64,000 nucleotides of DNA. Origin: an uncultured Solirubrobacterales bacterium. Lineage in GTDB: Bacteria > Actinomycetota > Thermoleophilia > Solirubrobacterales > Solirubrobacteraceae. The position numbers were made by a program, and so were the translations under genes. Location of the stretch: contig CAWJYE010000008.1 in assembly GCA_963847055.1 (NCBI GenBank), positions 298,947 through 362,946 on the forward strand. Reading direction: 5' to 3'. The notes below the pieces were generated by a model. That model had not been told where the DNA came from, made no database searches, and saw nothing but the letters and a program-made list of their open reading frames with translations. Positions 61 to 30,948 of the stretch are shown in pieces (position 1 is the first letter of the stretch; each line of letters starts with the position of its first letter).

Positions 61-1203
61 GTGACCGAGGAGTCGACTCCAGACCTGCAACGCACCGCGT
101 TCGATACCGCGCAGCGAGACGCGGGTGCGACCTGGACCGACTGGGAGGGCTGGGCTTGGGCGGCCGATTTCGGCGATCCCGTGGCTGAGCACAACGCGAC
201 GCGGACGGCGTGCAGCCTGTGGGACGAGTCACCGCTTCGGAAGTGGGATCTGCGCGGACGCGACGCCGTCGCGCTGACCGACGCCCTGTTCACCAACGAC
301 ATGGCCGGGCTCGAGGTGGGCCAGGTCCGCTACGGCGCGCTGTGCGACGAGCAGGGCAAGATGATCATGGACGGCACCGTCTTCCGACTCGCCGACGACC
401 ACTGCATGTCGATCACCAGCTACGACTCAGACCTGGCCTGGTTTGAGCAGGTCGCCTCTGACCGGGGGCTCGAGGTGCAGATCGAGGATCACACGCCGCA
501 GATGCCCCACCTGCAGATCCAGGGCCCCAACGCCCGCAAGGTGCTCGGGCCGATCACCGAGGGCGTCGACGTCGACGCGCTGCGCTATTTCCGCTTCGTC
601 CACGAGGGCGTGCGCGTGGGCGGCGTCCCGGCCTGGGTGTCACGCACGGGGTATTCGGGCGAGCTCGGCTTCGAGGTCTACTGCTCCGTCGATGACGCGC
701 CCGAACTGTGGGATGCCGTGGTGCGCGCGGGCCAGCCTCACGGCCTGCGCCCGATCGGCCTGTCGGCGATCGAGATCCTGCGGATCGAGTCCGGCCTGCT
801 GTTCCCCGACATCGACTACTTCCCCCGTCAGACCGACCCTTACGAGGTCCGGCTTGACAACGTCATCAAGCTCGACAAGGCGGGCGACTTCGTGGGTCGC
901 GACGCACTGCGAGCGATCGCGGCTCAGGGCACTCCGCGGCTGCTGACGACCTTGCGGATCGAGGGGGACCAGCTGCCCGAGTACGGCGCTGCCGTCACCA
1001 GCGACGGTCGCGAGGTGGGGGTCGTCCGGAGTCCGTGCCAGAGCCCGACCTTTGATATGCAGGTGATCGGGATGACAACGCTGGAGCGCGACCTGGTGCA
1101 CGACGGCCAGCGGGTCGAGGTGACGGTTGGCGACGGTGTGGTCGGCGCCACGGTGGCGCCATTTCCCATCTACGACACGCAGAAGCGGCGTCCGCGCAGC
1201 TAA
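61..1203 (+). CDS. Aminomethyltransferase (GcvT/T-protein) family, THF-dependent demethylase-like
   Basis: 380 aa ORF with T-protein motifs (GQVRYGALCDEQGKMIMDG, QIQGPNAR, SRTGYSGELGFEVY, LRIESGL, PFPIYD). No gcvH/gcvP in window. Confidence 0.85.
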   Translation: MTEESTPDLQRTAFDTAQRDAGATWTDWEGWAWAADFGDPVAEHNATRTACSLWDESPLRKWDLRGRDAVALTDALFTNDMAGLEVGQVRYGALCDEQGKMIMDGTVFRLADDHCMSITSYDSDLAWFEQVASDRGLEVQIEDHTPQMPHLQIQGPNARKVLGPITEGVDVDALRYFRFVHEGVRVGGVPAWVSRTGYSGELGFEVYCSVDDAPELWDAVVRAGQPHGLRPIGLSAIEILRIESGLLFPDIDYFPRQTDPYEVRLDNVIKLDKAGDFVGRDALRAIAAQGTPRLLTTLRIEGDQLPEYGAAVTSDGREVGVVRSPCQSPTFDMQVIGMTTLERDLVHDGQRVEVTVGDGVVGATVAPFPIYDTQKRRPRS

Positions 1204-1976
1204 GCGTCCGCGACGTGGTCATGCGCCCGGGCCTGGTAGGCCTCGGCGGCGGCCACAAACCACTCGAACACGGCCGCGAAGCGAGCGTCGATCCGGCACT
1301 CCTCCTGCAGCTCCCATTGCACCCCGAGGACCGGGCTGCCGTCTAGCTCGATCGCCTCGACCACGCCATCCGGCGCCGTGGCCGTCGCGCGCAGCCCCGC
1401 GCCCAGCTCGTCCAACGCCTGGTGATGGAAGGAGTTGACGCTCGCGGCCGCGCCGCCGAGCGCGGCCCCGAGGATGCTCGATTCCTCCACGGCGATCGGG
1501 TGACGCGGATGGGGCGGGATCCGAGCGCCGTCCAAGGCCGCGCTCTCCATCCCCTTCCAGGCTTTCCAGCCCGGGTCTGAGGGGTGCTCGCGCGAGCGCG
1601 CGAGCAGGCGTACGTCCTGGTGCAGCGTCCCGCCGCGAGCCACGTTGAGGACCTGCATCCCGCGACAGACGCCGAGCACCGGCAATCCGCGATCCAGGGC
1701 GGCGGCCACGAGCGCAAACTCGAACTCGTCTCGGCGAGGCTCGGTCGCGGCCAGCAGCGGGCCGGGCGCCTGGCCGTAGCGGCCCGGGTCGATGTCGCGT
1801 CCGGGCGCGAGCACCACCCCGGCCAGGGGCTCGAGCGTGCCCGGCAGCGCCTCGGGGAGCTGGGCCAGCGTGACCGGCAGCCCACCGGCGGCGAGCAGCG
1901 GCCGCTGGATGCCCACCCCTCCGTAGTCGCCGAAGTCGTGCAGGCTCGCCGAGACGCCGATCAGGGCTCGCGCCAT
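1200..1976 (-). CDS. Gamma-glutamyl-amide hydrolase family (peptidase C26, PuuD-like class I glutamine amidotransferase)
   Basis: GRDIDP, EPRRDEFE, LGVCRGMQ (nucleophile Cys), VNSFHHQ, GVQWELQE. ATG at 1976 overlaps the upstream stop (TGATG). The usual HPE triad motif reads ELQE here. Confidence 0.8.
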   Translation of the reverse strand: MARALIGVSASLHDFGDYGGVGIQRPLLAAGGLPVTLAQLPEALPGTLEPLAGVVLAPGRDIDPGRYGQAPGPLLAATEPRRDEFEFALVAAALDRGLPVLGVCRGMQVLNVARGGTLHQDVRLLARSREHPSDPGWKAWKGMESAALDGARIPPHPRHPIAVEESSILGAALGGAAASVNSFHHQALDELGAGLRATATAPDGVVEAIELDGSPVLGVQWELQEECRIDARFAAVFEWFVAAAEAYQARAHDHVADA

Positions 1977-4129
1977 CAGGCGCCAACCTGCTCGGTGCTC
2001 GGCACCAGCGCTTCCTCGATCAATTCGGTCAGCTCGCGCAGCTCGATTCGCTCGGCGTTGCCCGAGGTCTTGATCGCGTCCTCGTACATGGTCACGTCCT
2101 TCGGGCACGAGACCACGAACAGCTCGACCTCGGGAAGGTCGACCGCCTCGCGGATGCGGTTCTCTGAGGGCCGCTCCTGACCGGGCTGATCGGTGATCCA
2201 GATTCGTCCGCCGCCCGCGCCGCAGCAGAACGAGTTGTCGCGGTTGCGCGGCATCTCGACCAGCCCGCAGCCCAGTAGTTCGAGAATCCTTCGCGGAGCT
2301 TCGTACTCACCCTGAAACCGGCCCAGATGGCACGGGTCGTGATAGGTCACCCGATAGGAGAGGCGGTCGCGCACCTGCAGACGACCGGCCTCGATCAGCT
2401 CGAGCAGCAGCGCCGTGTGGTGGCTAACCCTCCAGCTGCCGCCGAGCTCGGGATACTCGTTTCGCAACGTGTTGAGCGAATGGGGATCGCTGGTGACGAT
2501 CCGCTGAAACTCGCAGTCGTCGATCGTGGCGATGTTCTGCTCGGCCAGGGACTCGAACAGACCCTCCTCGCCGACCCTCCTCACGTCATTGCCCGAGTTG
2601 CGCTCGCCGTCGTAGAGGATCCCGAAGTCGACCCCGGCGGCGTGCAGAAGCCGCGCCAGCGAACGGGTCACCTGTTGGGAGCGCGGATCGAACGATGCGT
2701 AGTCCCCCACGAACCACAGCACATCGACCGGGTGCTTGCGGGCATCGGGGACATCGAAGTGCAGCTCCCGAGTCCAGCGACCGCGCTTGCGCCGGTTCTC
2801 GCCGAACGAGTTACCGGACTTGTGGATCACCTCGAGGGTCGACTGCAGGTTTGAATCGAGCTCGCCCTCCTCGACCAATCGCCGGCGCAGCTGGTTGATG
2901 ATTGGCGCCTGCTCGATCCCCACCGGACAGATCTCGACGCAGGCGTTGCACTGCATGCACGACCACAACGTCTCGGTCCTCACGCCGTCGGCTCCGATCA
3001 CGCCGGCGGTGAAGCCTCCACCGTCGGCGTCTCCGTCGAGCAGGGAACCGAGCAGGCCGCCGATGCCCGCGCCGGCCGCGGCGTGGTTGGACTGCTCGCG
3101 CAGCTCCAGGATCACGTCCCGGGGCGAGAGCGGGCGCCCGGTCGCGTTGGCCGGACACGCCTCATGGCACTTGCCGCACTTGGTGCAGGCATCGAGCTGG
3201 AGCAGGTGCAGGGGGCTGAAGTCGGCCAGAGCGCCGTAGCCGGCCGGCTCGTCGGCGCGCCCGGGAGCGATCGGGCGCAACCGCTTGCCCGCCATCGGAT
3301 CACGCAGCGCCAGCGAGAAGAAGCTGGTCAGCATGTGCGCGGCCTTGGTGTAGGGGATGCTGGCCACGAAGGAGATCGCCAGCAGCCCGTGAAACCACCA
3401 CAGCCCGTGACGGAGCCCCGCCAGCGTGCCACGGCCCAGCCCGCCCAGCGCCTGGGCCACGACCCAACCCCCGAACTGGGTAGCGCCGTAGCCGGGATGG
3501 TCCATCGCGATCCGCACCCCCTCGAGCACGAAGCCGGTCAGCGCGATCACCAGCAGCGCAATCACAAACCACCAGTCCCCGATCCTGTACACCCGGCGGT
3601 CGTACTGGGGATCGTCGCGGGCACGGTCGGGTCGCGAGTAGTCAAGCTTGGCGGGACGACCGATCGCGCGGCGGGCCATCATCACCAGCACGCCCGCGAC
3701 CAGGGCCGTGCCGAGGAGGTTGAGCACTTCCTTGTAGACGAGATAAAAGCCGCCCCGGAAGTAGTCCCAGCCGAACACCGGTGAGGTGAAGTCGGTATCG
3801 AAACCGAGGATCACCGTCCCGGCAAACAGCGTCAGAAAGCCGTAGAAGATGCCGCGGTGCGCCCAGCCGGCGGTCCGGTCACGACGCTCGATCGTCGCGT
3901 GGGAAAACAGCAACCGCGCACCCGTGGCCAGCCGCGGTGGCAGCTCGCGCCAGGGACACGGCGGCCAGGCGCCGCCCTGGCCGCGCCGGTACTTGACGAT
4001 CGGCCGCAGCACTCCGTAGACGAACACCGCCACCGAGGCCACCGCCAGCAGGTACCAGAGAACCTTGAGGACGGTGGCGAAGTGCCAGAAGACCGGGCGT
4101 GTCTCGGTGGCCGCGAGCAGGAGCGCCAT
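1976..4129 (-). CDS. Membrane Fe-S oxidoreductase, FadF/EtfD-like (NarI-like TM domain, 2x[4Fe-4S], CCG domains); probable ETF:quinone oxidoreductase
   Basis: N-terminal TM helices with His residues, CTKCGKCHEACP and CMQCNACVEICP, HDPCHLGR, CCGAGGG. Start reset to ATG 4129 (MALLLAATETRPVFW). Directly downstream of etfBA. Confidence 0.8.
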   Translation of the reverse strand: MALLLAATETRPVFWHFATVLKVLWYLLAVASVAVFVYGVLRPIVKYRRGQGGAWPPCPWRELPPRLATGARLLFSHATIERRDRTAGWAHRGIFYGFLTLFAGTVILGFDTDFTSPVFGWDYFRGGFYLVYKEVLNLLGTALVAGVLVMMARRAIGRPAKLDYSRPDRARDDPQYDRRVYRIGDWWFVIALLVIALTGFVLEGVRIAMDHPGYGATQFGGWVVAQALGGLGRGTLAGLRHGLWWFHGLLAISFVASIPYTKAAHMLTSFFSLALRDPMAGKRLRPIAPGRADEPAGYGALADFSPLHLLQLDACTKCGKCHEACPANATGRPLSPRDVILELREQSNHAAAGAGIGGLLGSLLDGDADGGGFTAGVIGADGVRTETLWSCMQCNACVEICPVGIEQAPIINQLRRRLVEEGELDSNLQSTLEVIHKSGNSFGENRRKRGRWTRELHFDVPDARKHPVDVLWFVGDYASFDPRSQQVTRSLARLLHAAGVDFGILYDGERNSGNDVRRVGEEGLFESLAEQNIATIDDCEFQRIVTSDPHSLNTLRNEYPELGGSWRVSHHTALLLELIEAGRLQVRDRLSYRVTYHDPCHLGRFQGEYEAPRRILELLGCGLVEMPRNRDNSFCCGAGGGRIWITDQPGQERPSENRIREAVDLPEVELFVVSCPKDVTMYEDAIKTSGNAERIELRELTELIEEALVPSTEQVGA

Positions 4130-4142
4130 GGCGGCTAGCGGC

Positions 4143-5105
4143 TCACGGGTCCAGCAGCCCCTCGAGCTCGTCGGCGATCTCGAACAGGTCCGCCACCGCT
4201 CCGTAATGCGCGACGCCGAAGATCGGCGCTTCCGGGTCGGTATTGACGGCGATGATCGTCTCCGCCGTGCGCATGCCCGCCAGGTGCTGGACGGCGCCGG
4301 AGATCCCGAGCGCCAGGTACACGCGCGGCTTGACCGTCTTCCCCGACTGACCAACCTGGCGCGCGCTCGGCATCCAACCGGCGTCCACGAGCGGACGCGA
4401 CACGCTGAGGGTCGCGCCCAGGCGCTCGGCCAGGGCCTCAAAGCGCGGAAGCTCGTCCTTGTCCTGGACGCCACGGCCGATCGAGACCAAGAACGGCGCC
4501 TTGGTGATGTCGACATCGCCCTCCTGCACCTCCTCAAAGCCCAGGTGCTCGGTGGCGGCCACCCCGTCGAGGGCCAGCTCCACCGTCCGGCTGGGTGGCG
4601 ATCCCCCGCCCGCGGCGGCCGGCTCGAAGGTCCCGGGACGAAGCAGCAGCAGCGTGCACGGCTTGCCCGGGAAGTCGAGCTCGAGGACGAGCTTGTCGCC
4701 GTAAGCGCCGCGCCCGGCGATGGGGCCGTCGTCGAAGGACAGCGAAGTGACGTCTGAGGCAAAACCCAGCCCTCGCCTGGCCGCCACGGCCGGCGCGCAA
4801 CCGAGCGCGTCGATCGTGTGACCGAGCAGCACCAGTCCGGGGCGCTCGGTCTCGATCAGCTCCTCCAGCGCCCGCTGGGCGACGTGGGCTTCGAAGTGCT
4901 CTTGGGGGGTCGCAACAAGCAGCAGCTCGTCCACCCCGTCGGCGGCCAGCGCCGCGGCGAAGCGCTCGGGCTGATGATCGATCACTGCCACCACCAGGCG
5001 GCCCCCGCACGACGGCTTGATCTGACGGGCGGCGCTGACGAGCTCCAGCGAGACGTCGCGCAGCTCTCCACGGCGGGTTTCGGCGACTACGAGCACGTCG
5101 CTCAT
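4143..5105 (-). CDS. etfA: Electron transfer flavoprotein alpha subunit
   Basis: VSIGRGV, SRPLVDAGW, QVGQSGKTVKP, ALGISGAVQHLAGM, AVNTDPEAPIF. Confidence 0.95.
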   Translation of the reverse strand: MSDVLVVAETRRGELRDVSLELVSAARQIKPSCGGRLVVAVIDHQPERFAAALAADGVDELLLVATPQEHFEAHVAQRALEELIETERPGLVLLGHTIDALGCAPAVAARRGLGFASDVTSLSFDDGPIAGRGAYGDKLVLELDFPGKPCTLLLLRPGTFEPAAAGGGSPPSRTVELALDGVAATEHLGFEEVQEGDVDITKAPFLVSIGRGVQDKDELPRFEALAERLGATLSVSRPLVDAGWMPSARQVGQSGKTVKPRVYLALGISGAVQHLAGMRTAETIIAVNTDPEAPIFGVAHYGAVADLFEIADELEGLLDP

Positions 5106-5905
5106 CCGGCTGCGCTCATCCGGTCGCGGACGATCTCGACGATCCGGCTGGCGAGCTGGTCAGGCGAACCGTCGAGCATCTCGGCGCCGCCTCCCCGCTC
5201 GGGCATTCTCAGCTCACGGCGCCGCGAGGCGGCCGCAGCGGCGAGCGCTCCCGCGTCGAGATCGAGCTGCTCGGGCGTGGTGACCTCGAGTGGCTTCTCA
5301 CGCGCCCGCTTGATCGCCCGCAGGTTGGCGTACCGAGGCTCGTTGATCCCGGTCTGGATCGTGAGCAGCGCCGGGGTGCGCACGCGCAGCACCTCTACCA
5401 GTCCGCCCTCGAGCTCGCGCTTGACAGTGGCGGTGGAGGCAGCGGCCGCGTACTCAAGATGCTTGACCACGGCCACGTGGGGCAGCTCGAGGTAGCCGGC
5501 CAGAGCCACGCCGGTAGCCCCGTTGACGGCATCCGAGGACTGCACGCCGCACAGCACGAGGTCGGGTGCCTCGCGCGCGACCGTGGCGGACAGAACACGC
5601 GCCACCGCGAGCGGATCGAGATCCCGGCAGTCATCGCTCCACACCCGGATGGCTCGGTCAGCGCCCATCGCCAGGCAGCCGAGCAGCGCCTCCTCGGACG
5701 GCTGGTCGCCGACGGTGATGACCACCACTTCGGAGTCGTCGCCCTCGGCCTGTTCGCGCAGGGCCAAAGCCGCCTCGAGCGAGAACGAGTCCCACTCGTT
5801 GAGCTCGGTTTGCACGAAGTCAGGGTCGACCCCCGAGCCGTCCTCGAGCAGCTCGAAGTCGTCGTCGAGCGCGGCGACCTGCTTGACCGGGACGACGACC
5901 TTCAC
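5102..5905 (-). CDS. etfB: Electron transfer flavoprotein beta subunit
   Basis: VPVKQV, LNEWDSFSLE, MGADRA, CGVQSSD, RELEGG, GINEPRY. Resembles the Methylophilus TMADH-partner ETF as I remember it. Confidence 0.95.
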   Translation of the reverse strand: MKVVVPVKQVAALDDDFELLEDGSGVDPDFVQTELNEWDSFSLEAALALREQAEGDDSEVVVITVGDQPSEEALLGCLAMGADRAIRVWSDDCRDLDPLAVARVLSATVAREAPDLVLCGVQSSDAVNGATGVALAGYLELPHVAVVKHLEYAAAASTATVKRELEGGLVEVLRVRTPALLTIQTGINEPRYANLRAIKRAREKPLEVTTPEQLDLDAGALAAAAASRRRELRMPERGGGAEMLDGSPDQLASRIVEIVRDRMSAAG

Positions 5906-8134: not shown

Positions 8135-8161
8135 GGTCTCTCCCTCCCTCAGCTCCCTCGA

Positions 8162-8177
8162 TGAACAAATAGGTTCA
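8162..8177. promoter_or_regulatory. Palindromic candidate operator upstream of tmd
   Basis: TGAAC-AAATAG-GTTCA in the short AT-rich gap about 28-43 bp upstream of the tmd start. Confidence 0.45.
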
Positions 8178-8187
8178 GGCCAAAGTT

Positions 8188-17060: not shown

Positions 17061-17066
17061 AACCGG
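17048..17066. promoter_or_regulatory. Palindrome over the gntR start, probable autoregulatory operator
   Basis: CCGGTTG-GTCCA-CAACCGG. The core resembles HutC/DasR-type TGGTCTAGAC boxes. Confidence 0.5.
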
Positions 17067-17208
17067 CCGCCCTTTTGACGATCCCGTTGGCATCTGGTTC
17101 AGCGACTCCTACCACTCAGCGCGTCGCGGCAATCGTATTGGCAGGCACGGCGTCGGCGCGACTTTCAGGCCAGCTGGCTTCGGGCCGGCCGCGAGAAGCG
17201 AGCCGTCT

Positions 17209-24330: not shown

Positions 24331-24668
24331 CGGGTCGGCTCCGCAGCTCCGCCGACCGCGCCCGCTCCGTCGGATCCACCATTTGGCCCACCCGCCCGCG
24401 CGCCCGCCGCAGGCACCTCGGCCGGGCGGGCGGTGAAGAACACGTGGTTGGTGGTCGTGTCGCGCTCGGCGATGAACCAGGCGCGACACCCGGAGCGATG
24501 AAACCACCACTCGCGCTGGATCCCAGCCGTGTTGCGGCGGAAGTAGTTGTAGGCGCTGAGCTCGCGGAAGCTGGGACGAGCCGGGGGTCGAGGCGAGAGT
24601 TCGCCCCCGAAGGCGAAGTCAGTGACCTCGCGTGCGCCGCAGTTTGGGCACGTCAGGACGAACGACAC
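24327..24668 (-). CDS. soxD: Sarcosine oxidase family delta subunit
   Basis: CPNCGAR...EWWFHRSGCRAWFIAERDT Zn-binding pattern. Confidence 0.9.
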   Translation of the reverse strand: MSFVLTCPNCGAREVTDFAFGGELSPRPPARPSFRELSAYNYFRRNTAGIQREWWFHRSGCRAWFIAERDTTTNHVFFTARPAEVPAAGARAGGPNGGSDGAGAVGGAAEPTR

Positions 24669-24675
24669 CCCGCGG

Positions 24676-24743
24676 ACGCTACGACCGCGGACTGATCCTG
24701 TCCAATATCGATTCTGCGACTATTGATCTGCGTTTGCTATCAA
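24676..24743. promoter_or_regulatory. soxD leaderless -10 box and LysR-type operator
   Basis: Minus-strand TAGCGT (24676-24681) lies 7 nt upstream of the soxD GTG. TTGAT-N11-ATCAA (24723-24743) has T-N11-A geometry, next to the divergent lysR. Confidence 0.55.
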
Positions 24744-24755
24744 AGGACCCCAGCC

Positions 24756-25637
24756 GTGGAACTACGCCAGCTTCGCTATTTCGTCGCCGTCGCCGAGGAG
24801 CTTCACTTCCGTCGCGCGGCCGCGCGCCTGCATGTGTCCCAGCCGCCCATCAGCCAGCAGATCGCCCGTCTCGAGCGAGAGTTGGGCTGCCGCCTTCTCA
24901 ACCGCACCCAGCGACGGGTCGAGCTGACCGCGGCCGGCGAGGCGTTCCTGCGCGACGCCCGGGCGATGCTGGGCGAGCTCGAGGTCGCGGTGGCCACCGT
25001 GCGGCGGATCGACGTCGGCCAGGCGGGATTGCTGAGGATCAACTTCGTCGGCTCGGCGCTGCTATCGATCGTTCCCGGGATCGTCCAACGCTTCCGCCGC
25101 GGGCGGCCGAACGTCGAGATCGAGCTCCGCGAGCGCTCGACGCTCGCGCAGCTGCGGGCCCTGACCGCCGGGGTCGTCGACGTCGGGCTGGTGCGGCCCC
25201 CGATCGACCCCGACGATGGGCTCCGGACCGAGGTGGTGATGCGCGAGCGCACCGTGGCCGCGATCCCCGCCGGTCACCCGCTGGCCAAGCTGCGGCGGGT
25301 GCCGCTTGCGCGCCTGGCCGCCGAGCCGCTGGTCCTGTTTCCGCGCGAGCAGGCGCCCGGCTACCACGACCTCCTCACCGGCCGGCTCGCCGCTACCGGC
25401 ACCTCGCCACAGGTCGTCCAGTACGCGCCCGAGATGCTGACCATCATCGGCCTCGTCGCCGCCGGGATCGGCGTCTCCCCGGTTCCCGCCTCGGTCGCCC
25501 GGCTGGCGCTCGACGGGGTCACCTACCGCCCGCTGGTGGGCGCACCCGACACCGAGCTGCTGGCGCTCACGCGCGCCGGCGATGAGTCGCCGTTAGTGAG
25601 GGCTTTCCTCGCCGACGCCCGTGAGCACCGGGATTGA
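24756..25637 (+). CDS. LysR-family transcriptional regulator
   Basis: ELRQLRYFVAVAEELHFRRAAARLHVSQPPISQQIARLE. AAAGGA RBS before GTG 24756. Confidence 0.95.
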   Translation: MELRQLRYFVAVAEELHFRRAAARLHVSQPPISQQIARLERELGCRLLNRTQRRVELTAAGEAFLRDARAMLGELEVAVATVRRIDVGQAGLLRINFVGSALLSIVPGIVQRFRRGRPNVEIELRERSTLAQLRALTAGVVDVGLVRPPIDPDDGLRTEVVMRERTVAAIPAGHPLAKLRRVPLARLAAEPLVLFPREQAPGYHDLLTGRLAATGTSPQVVQYAPEMLTIIGLVAAGIGVSPVPASVARLALDGVTYRPLVGAPDTELLALTRAGDESPLVRAFLADAREHRD

Positions 25638-26615
25638 GTCCGGGCGCCGCCGGCGGGCCTCGATCTGCTCGAGCTTGGCCAGCAGGCTCTCGGCCATCCT
25701 GATCGAGGCGGCGTCGATCAGCCGGCCGTCGAGCGAGACGGCGCCCTTGCCCTGGGCCGCCGCCTCCTCCATCGCGGCGACGATCCGGCGGGTCTTCTCG
25801 ACGATCCGCTCACTGGGCGTGAACACCTCGTTGGCAAGCTCGATCTGGGACGGGTGGATAGCCCACTTGCCCTCGTAGCCAAGCACGGCCGCCCGGCGGG
25901 CGGAGGCGAGATAGCCGTCGGGATCGGTGAAGTCCCCGAACGGCCCATCGATCGGACGCAGCCCGTAGGCCCGGCAGACGACCGCGATCCGCGCCAGCGC
26001 GAAGTGCCACTGATCGCCCAGGTGGCGCTCGCGCTCGCTCGCGCCATCCGCGTCGGCGAGCATCGCATAGTCCGGGTTGGTGCCCCCGATCGAGGTCGTG
26101 TGGCTCTGGATCGAGGCGGCGTAGTCGGCGACCCCGAAAACCATCGCCTCCATCCGCTCCGGACATGCCCGCGCGATCTCCTCACAGTTGACCATTCCGA
26201 TGGCGGTCTCGATCAACACGCTGATCGCGATCCGGCCACCCAGTCCGATCGCGTCCTCGATCTGGCTGAGCAACGTCGCCACCAGGTGGATGTCGGCGCC
26301 GCAGCTCGCCTTGGGGATCATGATCGAGTCCAGGTGGCTGCCCGCCTGCTCAACGACGTCGACGAGGTCGCGATAGCAATAGCGCGTGTCGAGACCGTTG
26401 ATCCGCAACGAGACTGAGCAGCCCGACCAGTCCTGCTCGCGCAGCGCGTCGATCACGTTGCGCCGCGCCTGCTCCTTGTCATCGGGGGCGACCGCATCCT
26501 CGAGGTCGAGCATCACGATGTCGGCTCCGGCCCTCGGAGCCTTCTCCAGCATCCGGACGTTGCTGCCCGGAACAGCGAGCTCACTGCGATGAAGGCGCGT
26601 CGGCGTCGGGCTCAT
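25593..26615 (-). CDS. mcl: Malyl-CoA/beta-methylmalyl-CoA lyase (CitE-like superfamily)
   Basis: RLHRSELAVPGSN, LDLEDAVAPDDKEQAR, RINGLDT, FGVADYAAS, RAYGLRPIDGPFGDF, GKWAIHPSQI, AVSLDGRLIDAASIRMAE closely follow remembered Methylorubrum MclA. Confidence 0.87.
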   Translation of the reverse strand: MSPTPTRLHRSELAVPGSNVRMLEKAPRAGADIVMLDLEDAVAPDDKEQARRNVIDALREQDWSGCSVSLRINGLDTRYCYRDLVDVVEQAGSHLDSIMIPKASCGADIHLVATLLSQIEDAIGLGGRIAISVLIETAIGMVNCEEIARACPERMEAMVFGVADYAASIQSHTTSIGGTNPDYAMLADADGASERERHLGDQWHFALARIAVVCRAYGLRPIDGPFGDFTDPDGYLASARRAAVLGYEGKWAIHPSQIELANEVFTPSERIVEKTRRIVAAMEEAAAQGKGAVSLDGRLIDAASIRMAESLLAKLEQIEARRRRPDSIPVLTGVGEESPH

Positions 26616-26729: not shown

Positions 26730-27881
26730 ATGGCCGATCCCAACGCCTTTGCTCCCCTTGATCCGCCTGAGCGACTGCTCTGTGGACCCGGCCCGAGCAA
26801 CGTCACGCCAGTCGCGCTGGCGGCCATGCAGCGACCGCTGCTCGGGCACCTCGACCCCCATCTGCACGAGATCATGACCGAGTTGGTCGGCCTCTTGCGA
26901 GCGGCCTACCAGGCCGCGGGCGGCCTGGTGCTGCCACTTCAAGCGACCGGGACCTCCGGGATGGAGTGCGGTCTGGCCCACCTGCTCGAGCCGGGCGATA
27001 CCGCGATTATCGGCGTGAACGGTTTCTTCGGACGCCGGGTGGTCGAGATCGCCGGCCGGCTGGGCGCCAAGGTCGTGCCGGTGAACGCCGACTGGGGCTG
27101 CCATGTGTCCAACCAGCAGCTGCTTGAAGCCCTCGACGCGCACCCCGACGCGCGGCTGATGGCGGTCATCCACGCCGAGACCTCGACCGGGGTCCGGCAT
27201 CCCCTGGCCGAGCTCGGAGACGAGCTGCGCGACCGCGAGGTGATGCTGATGGCCGACTGCGTGACCTCGCTGGGTGGCGTCGAGCTCGACTTCGACGGTT
27301 GGGGAATCGACTTCGCCTACTCCTGCACGCAGAAGTGCCTTGGTGCCCCGCCCGGCATGTCTCCGGTGGCCGTGTCGGACCGCGCGCTGGAGCGGATCAA
27401 GGCGCGCACGCATCCAGTCTCCTACTCGCTCGACCTTGAGCTGCTCGAGCGTTTTTGGGTCAAGCGCCCCGCCGTCTACCACCACACTGCCCCGGTGCTC
27501 CACATCTATGCGCTCTACGAGGCCCTGCGCGAGGTGGCGAGCGAGGGCCTGCGGGCTCGCTGGGAGCGCCACAACCGGGCCGGCTCCTACCTCCAGGACG
27601 AGCTGAAGGCGCGGGGCCTCGAACTCCTCGCCGAGCCCGAGCACCAGCTGGCCCCGCTGACCGCGGTGCGCGTCCCCGAGGGGGTCGACGGCCCGCACGT
27701 GCAGGCGCGCCTGCTGCGCGAGCACCGGATCGAGGTCGGCGGCGGGCTTGGCCCGGCGGCGCCGGCGATGTGGCGGATCGGGTTGATGGGCTACAACGCC
27801 CGCATCGAGATCGCTGACCGGGTTCTGGCGGCGCTCGACGCCGTACTCGCTGACGAGCCCGCGCTGAGTCCCACCGCCTGA
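26730..27881 (+). CDS. Class V PLP aminotransferase, alanine/serine--glyoxylate aminotransferase type
   Basis: LLCGPGPSN, GHLDP, TGTSGME, IHAETSTGV, DCVTSLGG, YSCTQKCL (PLP Lys), YHHT, WRIGLMG. Confidence 0.88.
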   Translation: MADPNAFAPLDPPERLLCGPGPSNVTPVALAAMQRPLLGHLDPHLHEIMTELVGLLRAAYQAAGGLVLPLQATGTSGMECGLAHLLEPGDTAIIGVNGFFGRRVVEIAGRLGAKVVPVNADWGCHVSNQQLLEALDAHPDARLMAVIHAETSTGVRHPLAELGDELRDREVMLMADCVTSLGGVELDFDGWGIDFAYSCTQKCLGAPPGMSPVAVSDRALERIKARTHPVSYSLDLELLERFWVKRPAVYHHTAPVLHIYALYEALREVASEGLRARWERHNRAGSYLQDELKARGLELLAEPEHQLAPLTAVRVPEGVDGPHVQARLLREHRIEVGGGLGPAAPAMWRIGLMGYNARIEIADRVLAALDAVLADEPALSPTA

Positions 27882-27896
27882 CCGACCGCTCGCGCC

Positions 27897-28793
27897 CTAC
27901 GGGCTGGCCTGGGGAGGCGAGGCCTCAGCGGCCTCAGCGGACGCACTGCCTTGGGCGCGAGCCGCCGCGAGCGTGTTACCGAGCAGCATGGCGATCGTCA
28001 TCGGGCCGACCCCACCCGGCACCGGAGTGATCAACCCGGCGACCTCGACCGCCGAGGCGAACTCGACGTCACCCACCAGCCCCGCCCCGGTCCGGTTGAT
28101 GCCGACGTCGATCACCGTCGCGCCCGGCTTGATCCAGCTGCCCTTGACCATTTGCGGGCGCCCGACGGCAGCGATCAGCACGTCGGCCCGGCGGCAGACC
28201 TCGTCGAGATCCCGGGTGCGAGAGTGGCACGTGGTGACGGTGGCGTTCTCGGCCAGGAGGAGTGCGGCCACCGGCTTGCCGACCAGATCCGAGCGGCCCA
28301 CGATCACCGCCTCGGCTCCCTCGAGGGCCACCTGGTAGCGGCGCAGGAGCTCGATCACGCCCGCCGGCGTGCACGGCCGCAGGCCCGCAAGCCCCTTGGC
28401 GAGCAGGCCCGCGGACACGGGCGTGAGCCCATCGACGTCCTTGCCGGCGTCGATCAGAGTCGTCAGGAAGGAGCCGTCAATGTGTTCGGGAGTCGGCAGC
28501 TGCAGGAGGATGCCGGAGACGAGGTCGTCGCCGTTGAGCTCGTGTATGAGCGTCTGCACCTCGGCCTGCGTGGCGCTGGCGGGAAGATCGTGGGCGAATC
28601 CCTCGATCCCCACCTCCGTGCACGCCCGCTGCTTGCCGGCCACGTACACGGCCGAGGCGGGATCTTCTCCCACCAGTACGGTGGCGAGCCCGGGCCGGCG
28701 GCCACCTTGCGCGCACCATGCGTCAATCGCCGCGCGAACTTCCGCACGCACCTGGGCGGCGATCGCCTTGCCGTCGATTATCTGGGCGCTCAT
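27897..28793 (-). CDS. folD: Methylene-THF dehydrogenase/cyclohydrolase
   Basis: IIDGKAIA, YVAGK, GILLQLP, KDVDGL, PCTPAG, GRSDLVGKP, VIDVGIN, TPVPGGVGPMTIAML. Confidence 0.97.
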   Translation of the reverse strand: MSAQIIDGKAIAAQVRAEVRAAIDAWCAQGGRRPGLATVLVGEDPASAVYVAGKQRACTEVGIEGFAHDLPASATQAEVQTLIHELNGDDLVSGILLQLPTPEHIDGSFLTTLIDAGKDVDGLTPVSAGLLAKGLAGLRPCTPAGVIELLRRYQVALEGAEAVIVGRSDLVGKPVAALLLAENATVTTCHSRTRDLDEVCRRADVLIAAVGRPQMVKGSWIKPGATVIDVGINRTGAGLVGDVEFASAVEVAGLITPVPGGVGPMTIAMLLGNTLAAARAQGSASAEAAEASPPQASP

Positions 28794-28820
28794 GACAAGA
28801 ACTGGTAGATAAAGGTTGCC

Positions 28821-30233
28821 GTGCCGACGACGATCACCCTACCTGGCGCGTCCGGAATCCGGGGGGCGATCGACGTGCTGCGCGTTCCGCTGCCCGGGGC
28901 GCTGCCCGTGGCCGAGGCGTTGGCGCAGCTCAGCTGCGAGCGGCTGCCCTTCGCGCTCACCGGGAGCTGGGCGGGCGGAGGCGCGATCCTCGGTTCCGAA
29001 CCGATCGCGGTGGCCGCCGACGACGCCGATCCGCTCGTGACGCTTGATGACCTTCCCTCCTGGGCGGGCCCTGCGCCGAGCGGCGCCGTGGGCGGGGGCT
29101 GGTTTGGCTGGCTCGGCTATCGGCTTGGGCGCCGGATCGAGCGCGTACGCAGCGGTCCGCCGCGCCCGGTGGTGTTGCCCGAGTTTCACCTCGCCTTCTA
29201 CGACCACGTGCTGCGCCTCGACGCCGACGGGCAGTGGTGGTTCGAGGCTCTGATCAGCGACGCCCGGCGTGCCGCGCTCGATGCGCGCCTGGCGCAATTG
29301 CGTACTCTGGTGACTGGGCCGGCACTGGCGGGGCGACCCTATGTCGCACCGCCGCCGCTCACCCTCGCCCGAGCCGCCGCTCAGCACCATCTCGATGCGG
29401 TCAGCGACTGCCGGGCGCGAATCGCAGCCGGCGAGATCTTCCAGGCCAACCTGTGCGTGCGACTCGAGTCCCGATGGCAGAGACCGCCGACCGAGCTGTT
29501 GGCTCAGGCCCTGACCGGCACCACCCCGCCCTTCGGCGCCGCCTTTCACACCCCGCGGGGCGGGATCGCCAGCCTCTCGCCCGAGCTCTTCCTGCGCCGC
29601 CGCGGCGAGCATGTTGTCACCGCCCCGATCAAGGGCACAATCGTCCGCGAAGCCGGACCGGCGGCCGCGGGCGCCCGAGCCCGGCTACTCGCCTCGAGCA
29701 AGGATGCCGCCGAGCACGTGATGATCGTCGACCTGATGCGAAACGATCTCGGGCGCGTTTGTCGCTACGGCTCGATCGAGGCGCCCCGCGCCCCCACCGC
29801 CGAAGCCCTCCCCGGCCTCTGGCATCTCGTCTCCGAGGTCACCGGGCGACTGCGCCCAGCGACCGGCAACGCTGACCTGCTCCGGGCCACCTTCCCCCCC
29901 GGGTCGGTCACCGGCGCCCCCAAGGTCCAAGCACTGCAGGTGATCGCCGCGCTGGAGGGGAGCGAGCGAGAGGTGTACACGGGCGCGATCGGGTACGCCA
30001 GCCCGGTCGCTGGGCTCGAGCTCAGCGTGGCCATCCGGACCCTCGAGGTCCATGACGGCGCCCTGTGGCTGGGAGCCGGCGGGGGCATCGTCGCCGACTC
30101 CGATCCCCAGACCGAGCTCGAAGAGGCCCTCGCCAAGGCCCGGCCGGTGGCCGACGCGATCGGGACCACGGTGGCTGTGGAGCCCGCGCCCAGATCAGCC
30201 GCGACCCCGGCTCGTGGTGTCCCCGATGCCTGA
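28821..30233 (+). CDS. pabB: Aminodeoxychorismate synthase component I (chorismate-binding)
   Basis: GEIFQANL, SLSPELFL, APIKGT, KDAAEHVMIVDLMRNDLGR, FPPGSVTGAPK, GAGGGIVADS. Confidence 0.85.
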   Translation: MPTTITLPGASGIRGAIDVLRVPLPGALPVAEALAQLSCERLPFALTGSWAGGGAILGSEPIAVAADDADPLVTLDDLPSWAGPAPSGAVGGGWFGWLGYRLGRRIERVRSGPPRPVVLPEFHLAFYDHVLRLDADGQWWFEALISDARRAALDARLAQLRTLVTGPALAGRPYVAPPPLTLARAAAQHHLDAVSDCRARIAAGEIFQANLCVRLESRWQRPPTELLAQALTGTTPPFGAAFHTPRGGIASLSPELFLRRRGEHVVTAPIKGTIVREAGPAAAGARARLLASSKDAAEHVMIVDLMRNDLGRVCRYGSIEAPRAPTAEALPGLWHLVSEVTGRLRPATGNADLLRATFPPGSVTGAPKVQALQVIAALEGSEREVYTGAIGYASPVAGLELSVAIRTLEVHDGALWLGAGGGIVADSDPQTELEEALAKARPVADAIGTTVAVEPAPRSAATPARGVPDA

Positions 30234-30948
30234 CCGTCCCGATCCGGCGCTGGGCGTATTCGAGACGCTGCTGGTCAGCGAGGGACGGATCCACGACCTC
30301 GACGGTCACCTCCAGCGCATGGATAGTTCGCTGCGCCAGCTGTACGGCCTGGGCCGGCCGGCCCGGCACCGCGACGAGCTCGAGGCACGAGCGGCCACCC
30401 TTTCGGGGTGCAACCGGCTCCGGGTCGACGCCATCCCCCGCGACGGTGTGCTGGAAATCGAATTGACGTCGTCGCCGCTGGCGCCCGGGCGGGGGGCTGG
30501 GGTTGTCGGCACGCCCGTGCTCCTACCGGGCGGCCTGGGGGAGCACAAGTGGCGTGATCGCCGGTGGCTCGAGGCCGTGAGCACCAGGGACGACGTCCCG
30601 CTCTTGATGGACGCTGACGACTGCCTGCTCGAAGCGGCGTGGGGAAATCTCTGGCTGCGGGATGGGGATCGCCTGATCACGCCGGCCGCCGACGGACGAC
30701 TGCTGCCCGGAGTGACCCGCGCGGCGCTGATCGAGCTCGCACCGACGCTCGGCTTCACGGTCGCCGAGGAGCCCGTCTCGCTCGCATTCGCGGTCGAGGC
30801 GTGCGAGGCCTTCCTCACCTCCTCGCTGCGTCTGGCCGTGCCGGTGACCGTCGCGCCGGACGCCGTCCCGAGGCCGGTCCCGAGCTCGCCGAGCCCGGAA
30901 CTCGAGGGCATCCGCGAGGCGCTCCGTCGCAAGCCCAGTGAGCCATGA
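30226..30948 (+). CDS. pabC: Class IV aminotransferase, probable 4-amino-4-deoxychorismate lyase
   Basis: GVFETLL, HLQRM, GEHKW, LEAAWGNLW, LLPGVTR, FLTSSLR. Overlaps the pabB stop. Confidence 0.7.
   Translation: MPDRPDPALGVFETLLVSEGRIHDLDGHLQRMDSSLRQLYGLGRPARHRDELEARAATLSGCNRLRVDAIPRDGVLEIELTSSPLAPGRGAGVVGTPVLLPGGLGEHKWRDRRWLEAVSTRDDVPLLMDADDCLLEAAWGNLWLRDGDRLITPAADGRLLPGVTRAALIELAPTLGFTVAEEPVSLAFAVEACEAFLTSSLRLAVPVTVAPDAVPRPVPSSPSPELEGIREALRRKPSEP

Follow-up and report, generated by a model that had tools for sequence, protein, structure and literature searches.

The window, by which we mean the whole 64 kb stretch of DNA that was analysed, contains a near-contiguous block of methylated-amine and C1 genes at positions 61-30948, as seen by GC3-guided ORF calling combined with Pfam, NCBIfam and PDB searches. 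All of the genes (27/27) were confirmed to be present, and the family assignments made in a preliminary description of this DNA were nearly all correct; to its list we add SoxD, a gene of the Peptidase_C26 family at 1200-1976 and two unannotated but conserved ORFs at 8188-8673 and 8673-9119, the last three being members of one gene string. The first half of the block comprises, in order, genes for a GcvT-like protein, a C26 hydrolase-like protein, an EtfD-like protein, EtfA, EtfB, trimethylamine dehydrogenase (TMADH), the two small conserved ORFs, MgsC-, MgsB- and MgsA-like subunits, a GS-like protein and a DAO flavoenzyme; the second half continues with IclR, GntR, FchA-like, Fhs, SoxB, SoxG, SoxA, SoxD, LysR, malyl-CoA lyase, class-V aminotransferase, FolD, PabB and PabC. 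The GS-like and Mgs-like genes (hereafter type-2), TMADH, ETF, EtfD and the C26 hydrolase form an uninterrupted, translationally coupled 12-gene string from 13858 to 1200. Neighbouring genes of the block overlap by 1-8 nt and a search for internal terminators in the block gave no convincing candidate, both of which would agree with a single long operon. Contigs from soil ‘RNA-Seq’ data (≥88% identity) span the block genes, with depth greatest over TMADH, mgsC, the GS-like gene and fhs; this is weak evidence, as conserved sequence or carried-over DNA could also produce such a depth pattern. Three regulators lie within the block: an IclR-family protein (15403..16206, minus strand; PF01614 and PF09339; 61-78% identity in the block of soil contigs), a GntR/UTRA-family protein (16206..17093, minus; PF00392 and PF07702) kept after fhs/fchA in soil contigs, and a LysR-family protein (24723..25637, plus; PF00126 and PF03466), which is divergent from soxD and retained upstream of it, with 65-92% identity, in about 30 contigs from soil.

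The 730 aa product of 5942..8134 (minus) matched the solved TMADH (1DJN/2TMD) at 910 bits, against 519 bits for histamine dehydrogenase, with 69% identity to the solved enzyme across residues 2-413. It retains C30, Y60, S74, W105, Y169, H172, R222, W264, W355 and C345/348/351/364, and Asn replaces D267 of the catalytic triad. With the cofactor and TMA-pocket residues all kept, we are certain, judging from its sequence, that this is a genuine TMADH. Its predicted electron-transfer partners, as the preliminary description had proposed, are encoded directly downstream. ETF alpha (4143..5105, minus; PF00766 and PF01012) is of the TMADH-dedicated type, since it most resembles the TMADH-partner ETF of Methylophilus (1O94/3CLU, 280 bits; every other ETF ≤163 bits), and ETF beta (5102..5905, minus; PF01012, 125 bits) overlaps etfA by 4 nt. 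The EtfD-type membrane Fe-S oxidoreductase (1976..4129, minus; 717 aa), which is ETF:menaquinone oxidoreductase-like, has two CCG domains and a 4Fe-4S dicluster domain; its sole PDB match was 9OJN (246 bits), an accession code that appears in the paper on the M. smegmatis EtfD structure (PMC13083937). Along its entire length it shares 52% identity with a gene adjoining TMADH in Paracoccus aminovorans, and an EtfD-like gene is present in 70 of 81 loci. At the edge of the block, a stand-alone GcvT-family, THF-binding protein (61..1203, plus; PF01571, 222 bits, and PF08669) of the DmmD/Tdm-C-terminal-like kind is nearest to the THF domain of TMAO demethylase, as its top NCBIfam match was the C-terminal half of Tdm (289 bits) and its top PDB match TMAO demethylase 9Q59 (201 bits). 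The gene is linked to the TMADH module in 39/80 genome loci, and free-standing THF traps have a precedent in DmmD (PMC5520151); we propose that the protein may be the formaldehyde-to-THF acceptor for demethylases.

Two further genes of the string accompany TMADH. The terminal gene of this long minus-strand string (1200..1976, minus; PF07722, 168 bits) encodes a Peptidase_C26/PuuD-like gamma-glutamyl-amide hydrolase that scored 93 bits with the PuuD model, under that model's cut-off; its start codon (ATG at 1976) and the stop of the Fe-S gene overlap by 1 nt, and it follows the Fe-S gene in 16/80 loci. Kept upstream of TMADH is a small zinc-ribbon (CxC...CxxC) membrane protein (8188..8673, minus) that matched no Pfam family and has homologues of 40-73% identity in 43 loci; its start codon, the ATG at 8673, overlaps the stop codon of the ORF before it. 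The 64 kb window lacks the APC permease and Usp genes that usually belong to the TMADH module.

The preliminary description had also read gmaS and mgsABC of the N-methylglutamate (NMG) pathway from this block, and that reading stands only at the level of catalytic residues and domain types. The GmaS-like gamma-glutamyl-alkylamide synthetase (12401..13858, minus; PF00120, 316 bits) fails the NCBIfam GmaS model (TIGR03105, 343 bits; cut-off 470) and scored 247 bits with 9QUR, 189 with 7CQL and 267 with archaeal GS in the PDB. It shares with characterised GmaS the residues K30', Y147, D177, E186, N188, W300 and R312 (residue assignments from PMC7948447) and differs from GS in having Trp in place of the flap Glu; the Asp50'-loop and flap are altered and the changes Y174S/Q175Y are present. 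All three Mgs-like domain types were found in the window by Pfam: a class-II (Ntn) amidotransferase subunit, MgsA-like (11390..12370, minus; PF13522 and PF13537), which retains the N-terminal MCGIAG nucleophile (Cys1) and is 32-34% identical to the canonical-type copy; a GXGXG subunit, MgsB-like (10581..11402, minus; PF01493, 46 bits), at 35-40% identity to its canonical-type counterpart; and an FMN (glutamate-synthase domain) subunit, MgsC-like (9112..10569, minus; PF01645, 307 bits), at 86-94% identity to Thermoleophilia orthologues and 50-54% to the mgsC preceding soxD in canonical-type clusters. That these genes are the canonical NMG set is ruled out by the overall identity of 31-54% to canonical gmaS-mgsABC, by the TIGR03105 score and by the coexistence of both sets on soil contigs L138 and L148. 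On these comparisons the window set is a divergent paralogue, a second version of the NMG pathway genes.

The type-2 set is always accompanied by two further proteins. One is a highly conserved 148-aa protein (8673..9119, minus), encoded always directly after type-2 mgsC, which had no match in Pfam or NCBIfam. Its 7,886 homologues are all unnamed or ‘hypothetical’, the best 120 listed being at least 65% identical, and are reduced to just 186 representatives at 50% clustering; the clustered homologue search found no remote homologues, and AF2 modelled the protein poorly (pLDDT 55). The other is a DAO-family FAD oxidoreductase of 430 aa (14028..15320, plus; PF01266, 137 bits), divergent from gmaS2 in the window; in contigs L055-L066, L122 and L148 its gene lies on the same strand as mgsC2 and the 148-aa gene, as their operon partner. 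This gene had been called mgdA, a label that JGI gives to certain homologues (‘methylglutamate dehydrogenase subunit A’), but the protein is distant from SoxB (64 bits with the SoxB model; ≤59 bits with PDB sarcosine oxidases), and no plasmid-borne relative exceeded 31% identity. Within the type-2 set, it is our candidate for an N-methyl amino acid dehydrogenase.

A heterotetrameric N-methyl amino acid dehydrogenase/oxidase of the Sox type is encoded separately by SoxB (beta, MgdA-equivalent; 19516..20730, minus; TIGR01373, 454 bits, cut-off 529; PF01266, 246 bits), SoxG (gamma; 20723..21454, minus; PF01571, 55 bits; TIGR01375, 46 bits), SoxA (alpha; 21451..24330, minus; TIGR01372, 776 bits, cut-off 1164) and SoxD (delta; 24327..24668, minus; PF04267, 85 bits; CPxCG...GC motifs). 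SoxA has Fer2_4, SO_alpha_A3, GCV_T and GCV_T_C domains, its C-terminal GcvT domain being THF-binding, and starts with GTG at 24330 in a GTGA overlap with the soxD stop. With SoxD, all four subunits of the tetramer are encoded, their genes running D-A-G-B. The subunits fall under the NCBIfam Sox cut-offs and the substrate is therefore not readable from sequence. Orthologues of the tetramer lie directly after canonical gmaS-mgsABC in 19 soil contigs, and nearby in four more, the canonical GmaS of those contigs scoring 593 bits with TIGR03105 (above cut-off) and 400-426 bits against solved GmaS; from this position, the tetramer is probably an NMG dehydrogenase.

The THF C1 and pABA-supply genes are present by family matches: formate-tetrahydrofolate ligase (Fhs; 17815..19494, minus; PF01268, 804 bits), an FTCD_C-type cyclodeaminase/methenyl-THF cyclohydrolase-like protein (FchA-like; 17209..17814, minus; PF04961, 106 bits; FchA equivalog 75 bits, far under the cut-off of 275), bifunctional methylene-THF dehydrogenase/cyclohydrolase (FolD; 27897..28793, minus; PF02882, 224 bits; PF00763, 126 bits), aminodeoxychorismate synthase component I (PabB; 28821..30233, plus; NF004530, 371 bits, cut-off 383; TIGR00553, 303 bits) and a class-IV aminotransferase fold, aminodeoxychorismate lyase-like protein (PabC; 30226..30948, plus; PF01063, 102 bits; PabC models 46-58 bits, under their cut-offs), the pabC ATG at 30226 overlapping the pabB stop. 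These matches strongly support the predicted families of Fhs, FolD and PabB. Also present are malyl-CoA/beta-methylmalyl-CoA lyase (Mcl; 25593..26615, minus; 5UGR, 411 bits; 4L9Y, 329 bits; CitE-type structures ≤119 bits) and a class-V alanine/serine:glyoxylate aminotransferase (26730..27881, plus), which is of the AGXT type (alanine-glyoxylate aminotransferase 1VJO, 360 bits; human AGXT, 275 bits; BhcA model 180 bits, under cut-off) and unlike the plant SGAT type (6PK1, 123 bits). The ‘serine-cycle-like’ set suggested previously thus has thin support from these two genes only, with glyA, hpr, gck, mtkAB and ppc found neither in the 64 kb window nor among conserved neighbours.

At least 127 species genomes carry relatives of the TMADH; the best 80 are without exception Actinomycetota MAGs, mostly of Thermoleophilia, and Solirubrobacterales/Thermoleophilia MAGs are the closest relatives. 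The view that an actinobacterium here carries a coherent set of methylated-amine/C1 genes is borne out. The tmd-etfBA-FeS(-gcvT) module is kept at almost every one of 80 loci in actinobacterial genomes and is likewise present in Paracoccus aminovorans. The block modules recur jointly at 80 loci from genomes and at another 80 from metagenomes, an association far beyond chance. The full block order is repeated in L084, L085, L094 and other soil contigs, some of which (e.g. L094 and L085) are collinear with the window from ~31700 to ~11000 or ~16200. The block is not the ‘island’ it had been called, being uniform in composition, lacking tRNA or mobility genes and conserved vertically across a clade; it is a chromosomal supercluster that has been conserved, and its host is a Solirubrobacterales-like actinobacterium from soil. 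Nor is it the first actinobacterial case of NMG-pathway genes, which had been thought unusual in Actinomycetota: gmaS-mgsABC-mgdABCD homologues were earlier described in methylotrophic Mycobacterium isolates (PMC5023230). The block is widespread in soil relatives, though we found no characterisation of it in the literature.

The observation of this gene set is therefore confirmed and its original interpretation partly supported. Our current working hypothesis, to which we assign a probability of about 0.7, is that the supercluster strips methyl groups from TMA and its breakdown products and passes them to tetrahydrofolate. TMADH would oxidize TMA to DMA and a formaldehyde equivalent, a step shown at sequence level, and the formaldehyde may be captured on THF by the stand-alone GcvT/DmmD-like protein. 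A search for an enzyme of the DMA-to-MMA step gave none: a second copy of the TMADH family was absent from the window and, to a distance of 10 kb, from each of the 80 loci, and the annotated genes held no further candidate domain. Family, residues and synteny suggest that a small alkylamine would then be gamma-glutamylated by the GmaS-like ligase and converted by the three-subunit MgsABC-like enzyme to an N-methylated glutamate, from which flavoenzymes (the SoxBDAG-type tetramer, interpreted as NMG dehydrogenase, together with the type-2 set's DAO-family enzyme) would release the methyl group as methylene-THF, regenerating glutamate and NH3. At the family level, FolD, the FchA-like protein and Fhs would take methylene-THF to formate with a gain of ATP, PabBC raising folate supply, and a putative role of malyl-CoA lyase and the AGXT-type aminotransferase is to link glyoxylate, glycine and acetyl-CoA. 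Electrons would leave the FMN and 4Fe-4S cluster of TMADH and travel through the dedicated ETF and the EtfD-type membrane Fe-S/haem oxidoreductase to menaquinone, and TMA would therefore feed respiration.

The 27 closely packed genes at positions 61-30948 of the window probably form a conserved supercluster by which amines derived from trimethylamine (TMA) would be demethylated in a respiratory, THF-linked manner, a reading to which we assign a probability of roughly 0.7. Because the G+C content of the window is ~70% throughout, genes were called from third-position GC together with start-codon context, and families were assigned by Pfam, NCBIfam and PDB sequence searches. Nearly all the gene families named in a preliminary description of this DNA were upheld by these searches, and four genes were added to them: the delta subunit SoxD (24327-24668; PF04267, 85 bits), which completes a tetramer encoded in the order D-A-G-B, a gamma-glutamyl-hydrolase-like Peptidase_C26 gene (1200-1976) and two conserved ORFs without a family. 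From 13858 to 1200 the minus strand carries a glutamine synthetase (GS)-like gene, mgsA, mgsB, mgsC, a gene for a 148-aa protein, a zinc-ribbon gene and then, without interruption, the trimethylamine dehydrogenase (TMADH) module of tmd, etfB, etfA, etfD and the C26 gene. The junctions of this string overlap by 1-8 nt, and a promoter and terminator scan found no convincing internal terminator in it; the scan performed at chance level and placed one promoter-like site in the divergent spacer between the gmaS-like gene and the gene for a DAO enzyme. Soil contigs designated ‘RNA-Seq’ cover the block at identities of at least 88% and are deepest on TMADH, mgsC, the GS-like gene and fhs, a depth confounded by sequence conservation and possible DNA carry-over. 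Between 31 and 64 kb the genes are unrelated to the block, and no serine-cycle or RuMP genes were found among them. In this part of the window an unusual trio (34364-37724, minus strand) combines a Nuo51-like FMN/4Fe-4S protein with a membrane protein of the ferric-reductase type and with an ApbE flavin transferase; adjoining it are genes for a histidine kinase and for a GGDEF-EAL protein of response-regulator type (38175-41353). At the far end of the window is a small separate amine or amino-acid unit (60619-63860), in which an AsnC-family regulator is grouped with an amino-acid permease and an enzyme of the arginase family.

The 730-aa tmd product scored 910 bits against the solved Methylophilus TMADH as opposed to 519 bits against histamine dehydrogenase, aligned at full length (3-713) with 1DJN, with 69% identity over residues 2-413, and combines an OYE-type FMN domain, a 4Fe-4S motif and ADP-binding domains in a single chain of ~730 aa. 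Cys30, the site of 6-S-cysteinyl-FMN, and the cluster ligands Cys345, Cys348, Cys351 and Cys364 are kept in this protein and in its relatives from genome loci L046, L068 and L080. The window enzyme also keeps the TMA-binding aromatic bowl (Tyr60/Trp264/Trp355) and the trio Tyr60/Ser74/Trp105, which we take, from the mutagenesis literature, to be the discriminator of TMADH from dimethylamine (DMA) dehydrogenase. Within the Tyr169-His172-Asp267 triad, Asp267 is replaced by Asn in the window enzyme and in the Thermoleophilia and Acidimicrobiales orthologues (L046 and L068); the residue is Asp in the enzyme of a Mycobacteriales MAG (L080) and in that of Paracoccus. Scores and residues together rule out a histamine dehydrogenase or a DMA dehydrogenase, and from its architecture, its residues and its ETF partner the enzyme is predicted to be a trimethylamine dehydrogenase (EC 1.5.8.2) active on TMA. 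That partner is represented by the adjacent EtfA, which scored 280 bits against the ETF of Methylophilus TMADH and no more than 163 bits against any other ETF. Encoded with etfBA is a 717-aa Fe-S protein (1976-4129, minus strand) with membrane helices, 4Fe-4S motifs and two CCG domains, the sole PDB relative of which is 9OJN (246 bits), a code that occurs in a paper on the structure of EtfD of M. smegmatis, dealing with ETF:menaquinone oxidoreductase (PMC13083937). Domains and gene context identify it as a predicted EtfD-type ETF:menaquinone oxidoreductase. Given the matches of TMADH, EtfA and the Fe-S protein, a path by which electrons would pass from TMADH to ETF, then to EtfD and menaquinone is well supported at the sequence level.

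The TMADH of Methylophilus methylotrophus W3A1 (1DJN, 2TMD, 1O94) is the same three-domain Fe-S flavoprotein with the same special type of ETF; the window enzyme differs in its actinobacterial host, in residue 267, in having genes for a menaquinone-linked oxidoreductase of the EtfD type and for a GcvT-like protein beside its own, and in sharing one gene string with glutamate-pathway genes. With mycobacterial EtfD (Rv0338c/MSMEG_0690) the Fe-S protein has in common a membrane domain, two 4Fe-4S motifs, two CCG domains and a gene directly after etfBA, but it is 717 aa in length compared with 1042 aa for the 9OJN chain, and its partner would be an amine dehydrogenase in place of the acyl-CoA dehydrogenases. 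The module is also present on plasmid IV of Paracoccus aminovorans, a classic amine-using proteobacterium (locus L161, NZ_LN832562.1: 215713-235857), and is thus cross-phylum. There the content is the same and the order different (hyp-TMADH-FeS-hyp-etfB-etfA-aminomethyltransferase-DMT transporter, all under generic names), identities to the window proteins are 58% for TMADH, 52% for the Fe-S protein and 30% for the GcvT-like protein and, unlike in the window, no glutamate-pathway genes are adjacent. The same plasmid holds a second TMADH-family match elsewhere.

Convergent to the TMADH module of the window is a stand-alone GcvT-family gene, the product of which is closest to the THF domain of trimethylamine N-oxide demethylase (Tdm). 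A functional precedent is DmmD, likewise a stand-alone protein of GcvT fold whose gene adjoins that of a methylamine demethylase, with a proposed role as a THF-binding formaldehyde trap (PMC5520151); relative to DmmD and the C-terminal THF domain of Tdm, the difference lies in the partner, which is TMADH in the window and a DMA monooxygenase for DmmD. The zinc-ribbon (CxC...CxxC) protein (8188-8673, minus strand) belongs to no family, is hydrophobic with likely membrane segments and is kept upstream of TMADH in 43 loci, with no counterpart in the P. aminovorans locus. In most related loci (L002-L066, e.g. L008, L018 and L036) the interval between TMADH and the upstream homologue of the zinc-ribbon ORF holds a permease of the APC family (~505 aa, PF13520) together with a pair of universal-stress-protein (Usp) genes, and these likely form an amine uptake or regulation unit. 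Homologues of the permease and Usp genes are absent from the 64 kb, where the position is a gap at 8134-8188, and from the closest relative, L001, with the result that glutamate-pathway and TMADH genes run as one unbroken minus-strand string in the window. Several relatives (L009, L012, L017, L018, L021 and others) have an EamA/DMT transporter downstream of gcvT and, by the TMADH module, a 3-hydroxyacyl-CoA-dehydrogenase/thioesterase fusion of carnitine-dehydrogenase-like architecture. As these genes adjoin the module, they hint at carnitine or other quaternary amines as a source of TMA.

Canonical gmaS-mgsABC genes of the N-methylglutamate (NMG) pathway were not found in the window. Its own ligase and synthase genes (gmaS-like, mgsA, mgsB and mgsC, contiguous at 13858-9112) are, on sequence criteria, a paralogue of the canonical set, here termed type-2, with two dedicated genes of its own, those for the DAO enzyme and the 148-aa protein. 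The comparison was made possible by metagenome contigs that were scanned with SoxA and onto which the window proteins were then mapped. In such soil contigs a GS-like gene upstream of soxD encodes what is predicted to be a bona fide GmaS: the protein beside soxD in contig L148 scored 593 bits against TIGR03105 (cut-off 469.6) whereas the window protein, at 343 bits, fell below it, and against the solved glutamate-methylamine ligases 9QUR and 7CQL canonical-position GmaS scored 426 and 400 bits, respectively, and the window protein 247 and 189. The latter scored 267 bits against an archaeal GS. Identities between the two sets are 31-36% for the GS-like protein, 32-34% for mgsA, 35-40% for mgsB and 50-54% for mgsC, and contigs L138 and L148 carry both; neither the identities nor this co-occurrence is consistent with orthology of the window MgsABC-like proteins to the set that shares an operon with GmaS and Mgd. 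In L148 and L122 (upstream end cut off) the window-type set is followed by the 148-aa gene and then the DAO gene.

The GS-like protein was aligned with 7CQL, 9QUR and archaeal GS, and its residues were mapped onto RhGmaS, with residue roles from PMC7948447. It keeps Lys30', Tyr147, Asp177, Glu186, Asn188, Trp300 and Arg312, and thereby shows the hallmarks of GmaS, namely catalytic Asp177, Glu186 and Arg312, Trp300 in place of the flap Glu of GS, and no Asp50'. Its Asp50'-loop, however, is lengthened by a 9-residue insertion and its flap is shorter, and the protein further carries the substitutions Tyr174Ser and Gln175Tyr and an N-terminal extension of 45 residues. From the kept residues and altered loops we therefore predict an amine-ligating relative of GmaS with a remodelled amine pocket. 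A plain glutamine synthetase was rejected, given the flap Glu to Trp replacement and the presence of GmaS-type Asp177 and Asn188. The NMG set of the preliminary description thus stands as regards gene families and GmaS catalytic residues, and falls as regards canonical orthology and the TIGR03105 cut-off. According to Pfam, the MgsABC-like products are three separate proteins, an Ntn amidotransferase, a GXGXG protein and an FMN glutamate-synthase domain protein, and the MgsA-like N-terminus reads MCGIAG, with the Cys1 nucleophile kept. The DAO enzyme (430 aa) is distant kin of SoxB (64 bits) and of solved sarcosine oxidases (at most 59 bits); some of its homologues are labelled ‘methylglutamate dehydrogenase subunit A’ by JGI, and none of its relatives on plasmids exceeds 31% identity. 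The 148-aa protein (8673-9119, minus strand) has a strong coding signal and directly follows type-2 mgsC in every case. Neither Pfam nor NCBIfam has a family for it, remote homologues are lacking, and it forms a narrow family of thousands of close homologues, unnamed or ‘hypothetical’, the best 120 listed being at least 65% identical; its AF2 model has a mean pLDDT of 55. Apparent mgsC/148-aa fusions in three library proteins (P0243, P0299 and P0250) were discarded as a Rosetta-stone link, their out-of-frame Arg/Pro-rich linkers marking them as frameshift or assembly artefacts. In public records the parts of the type-2 set go by the names ‘glutamine synthetase’, the only name given to the GS-like homologues, ‘FAD-dependent oxidoreductase’ and ‘hypothetical protein’.

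The tetramer encoded further along the block comprises homologues of SoxB, SoxD, SoxA and SoxG, all four of which fall below the NCBIfam Sox cut-offs (for example, SoxA 776 against 1164, SoxB 454 against 529 and SoxG 46 against 144 bits). Orthologous soxD-A-G-B-fhs(-fchA) operons have canonical gmaS-mgsABC directly upstream in 19 contigs and nearly so in four; in the window clade lysR precedes the sox operon and the type-2 set is the only one nearby. As the former arrangement places the tetramer in the mgdABCD position of canonical clusters, and the Sox scores are below cut-off, a predicted NMG dehydrogenase is a better reading of the tetramer than a sarcosine oxidase. Downstream of the sox genes lie those for Fhs (804 bits) and, alongside, an FchA-like protein, which together with FolD would constitute a THF oxidation branch to formate, PabB and PabC being predicted to provide an extra supply of folate. 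The families of these THF C1 enzymes and of pabB/pabC, already named in the preliminary description, were borne out by Pfam and NCBIfam. Compared with the canonical NMG pathway of Methyloversatilis, Methylocella, Methylobacterium and Ruegeria (PMC5023230, PMC7948447), enzyme families, logic and GmaS residues are shared, and in soil contigs canonical gmaS-mgsABC is followed by orthologues of the window tetramer; the window set differs in being only 31-54% identical, in adding the DAO and 148-aa genes and in being joined to TMADH. In the literature searched, the pathway is described mainly in Proteobacteria (PMC5023228). However, its occurrence in Actinomycetota is neither a first case nor the unusual one that had been supposed, since gmaS-mgsABC-mgdABCD homologues are present in methylotrophic Mycobacterium isolates, which use a TMA monooxygenase and the RuMP cycle (PMC5023230, the one actinobacterial report of the NMG pathway in the literature searched).

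Also in the block is an HpcH-family protein that scored 411 bits against malyl-CoA lyase 5UGR and 329 bits against 4L9Y, and is predicted to be a true malyl-CoA lyase (Mcl) of the serine-cycle/ethylmalonyl-CoA pathway type; with CitE types at 119 bits or less, assignment as a CitE or HMG-CoA lyase was rejected. The neighbouring class-V aminotransferase (agt), of the alanine/serine:glyoxylate (AGXT) type, is closest to the alanine:glyoxylate aminotransferase 1VJO (360 bits) and scored 123 bits against plant SGAT. The mcl-agt pair is near the TMADH module in nine of the 80 genome loci examined and beside lysR-soxD in five soil contigs, and is a variable insert, missing from the otherwise collinear L090 and L092. 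Some Thermoleophilaceae loci (L043, L056, L058, L061, L063 and L066) have, by the LysR-aminotransferase-malyl-CoA-lyase group, a phosphoribulokinase/uridine-kinase-family gene that is not in the window. In common with the serine cycle of Methylobacterium extorquens the window has the Mcl type, a glyoxylate aminotransferase and nearby THF enzymes; it differs in that the aminotransferase is AGXT-type and in having FolD instead of MtdA. Of the serine-cycle-like set proposed earlier, then, Mcl was confirmed and an AGXT-type aminotransferase is present, but the 64-kb window and the conserved neighbours lack glyA, hpr, gck, mtkAB and ppc.

When each species was represented by a single genome, scanning revealed TMADH relatives in 127 genomes, the best 80 of which are all Actinomycetota MAGs, with TMADH identities of 85-97% in Solirubrobacterales/Solirubrobacteraceae, 82-85% in Thermoleophilaceae and ~77% in Acidimicrobiales, and with single Nocardiopsaceae and Mycobacteriales MAGs among them; the organism of the window is accordingly Solirubrobacterales-like. 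An exact match to the window TMADH was found neither in the protein index nor in SRA, where runs share up to 46% of the sequence words, and all are soil or permafrost metagenomes. By tblastn and ORF clustering, tmd-etfB-etfA-FeS is present in nearly all of the 80 loci and gcvT in about 39. A recent genomic island of proteobacterial origin would be in keeping with the 58-69% identity of TMADH and ETF to proteobacterial enzymes and with the tmd-FeS-etfBA-gcvT module on the Paracoccus plasmid, yet GC stays at 65-74% along the block and matches that of the flanks, tRNA genes are lacking, no integrase or transposase is present among the annotated genes, and orthologues of 77-97% identity have conserved synteny across Solirubrobacterales, Thermoleophilaceae and Acidimicrobiales. 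Any transfer is therefore ancient, the recent event is highly improbable, and we have abandoned the earlier term ‘island’. The block is widespread in Thermoleophilia, but it is not an already characterised one as far as the full-text literature searched is concerned, which yielded nothing on TMADH or on this block in that group. With regard to DMA, no enzyme for its conversion to monomethylamine (MMA) could be identified, the window and the 10-kb surroundings of each of the 80 loci being devoid of a second TMADH paralogue, and the type-2 set is the best candidate for this missing step. The ligase might gamma-glutamylate DMA (or another alkylamine) rather than MMA to give N,N-dimethylglutamate, from which the DAO enzyme would take one methyl group, leaving NMG, and the Sox-type tetramer the second, leaving glutamate, so that the step would be filled without a DMA dehydrogenase or monooxygenase. 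The presence of type-2 and canonical sets on the same contigs (L138 and L148) argues for different jobs; the type-2 set is joined to TMADH, the producer of DMA, in some 25 loci of Thermoleophilia, the two sharing an operon in the window; in the window clade the type-2 set and the Sox tetramer occur and a canonical set is missing from their vicinity; and the amine-pocket loops of the ligase are remodelled. The order of DAO enzyme and stand-alone GcvT followed by Sox tetramer is, moreover, reminiscent of dimethylglycine oxidase followed by sarcosine oxidase, and in PDB searches the window GcvT-like protein resembles the GcvT domain of dimethylglycine oxidase. Nevertheless, we regard this route as distinctly unlikely: we know of no N,N-dimethylglutamate pathway, MMA is the simplest substrate because the catalytic residues are identical to those of GmaS, a canonical set or a DMA enzyme may be situated elsewhere in the genome, and GcvT follows TMADH across loci, not the DAO gene.

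In a further reading the right half of the block, with the tetramer, Fhs, FchA, FolD, Mcl and the aminotransferase, could serve the catabolism of sarcosine, glycine betaine or creatine, with sarcosine converted to glycine and methylene-THF, glycine to glyoxylate and the latter, with acetyl-CoA, to malate, the amine genes being adjacent merely because both systems need THF. The subunits are indeed of the Sox family, the combination of Sox and folate genes in an operon is classic for users of sarcosine, and a reversed AGXT-type enzyme with Mcl would dispose of the glycine carbon. We nevertheless consider this quite improbable: canonical gmaS-mgsABC directly before orthologous soxDAGB is the standard NMG layout, the Sox subunits score below the family cut-offs, and Pfam revealed no betaine, dimethylglycine or creatinase genes in the block. 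TMA carbon could alternatively be assimilated by a serine-cycle-like route, in which methylene-THF and glycine would give serine, Mcl would regenerate glyoxylate and the aminotransferase would convert this to glycine. The adjoining of an Mcl of the appropriate type by a glyoxylate-type aminotransferase, FolD and a LysR regulator, and the recurrence of mcl-agt by TMADH modules and by lysR-soxD, speak for such assimilation, which is possible in this organism. However, only two pathway-specific genes are present, the aminotransferase is AGXT-type with a plant SGAT score of just 123 bits, the pair is variable, and Mcl has further roles in the ethylmalonyl-CoA pathway and in assimilating glyoxylate; growth as a methylotroph in this strong sense seems unlikely, although less so than the sarcosine route. 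Mcl and the aminotransferase fit glycine/glyoxylate disposal or the ethylmalonyl-CoA pathway equally well. A tentative proposition to which we give appreciably more weight, short of even odds, is that methylated amines are scavenged for nitrogen and energy only, with C1 units leaving as formate or CO2 and with Mcl and the aminotransferase as unrelated housekeeping enzymes. A complete THF oxidation branch ending in Fhs lies within the block, and mcl and agt are the only assimilation genes in the window; use of the NMG pathway for nitrogen by non-methylotrophs also supports this proposition, to the extent that it is covered by references cited in PMC5023230 and PMC5520151. On the other hand, the linkage of mcl-agt with amine modules recurs across lineages, which is hard to explain if they are unrelated, and no formate dehydrogenase was found in the block.

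What is new in the demethylation supercluster is the type-2 paralogue with its two dedicated genes, its operonic joining to TMADH-ETF-EtfD and its wide spread in uncultured soil Thermoleophilia. Surveys based on gmaS with curated models would probably overlook this set, because the GS-like protein fails the TIGR03105 cut-off. Thermoleophilia (Solirubrobacterales and Thermoleophilaceae) count as some of the commonest Actinomycetota of soil and some of the least cultured, with little known physiology. Methylated amines, for their part, are rich in nitrogen, arise when choline, betaine and carnitine are broken down, and are climate-relevant volatiles. Our current reading is that these bacteria would respire TMA through TMADH, ETF, EtfD and menaquinone, with methyl groups passed to folate. 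If, in addition, DMA is processed through the type-2 set, then abundant uncultured soil Thermoleophilia would demethylate TMA fully without any known DMA enzyme, and this complete demethylation may feed a serine-cycle-like assimilation.
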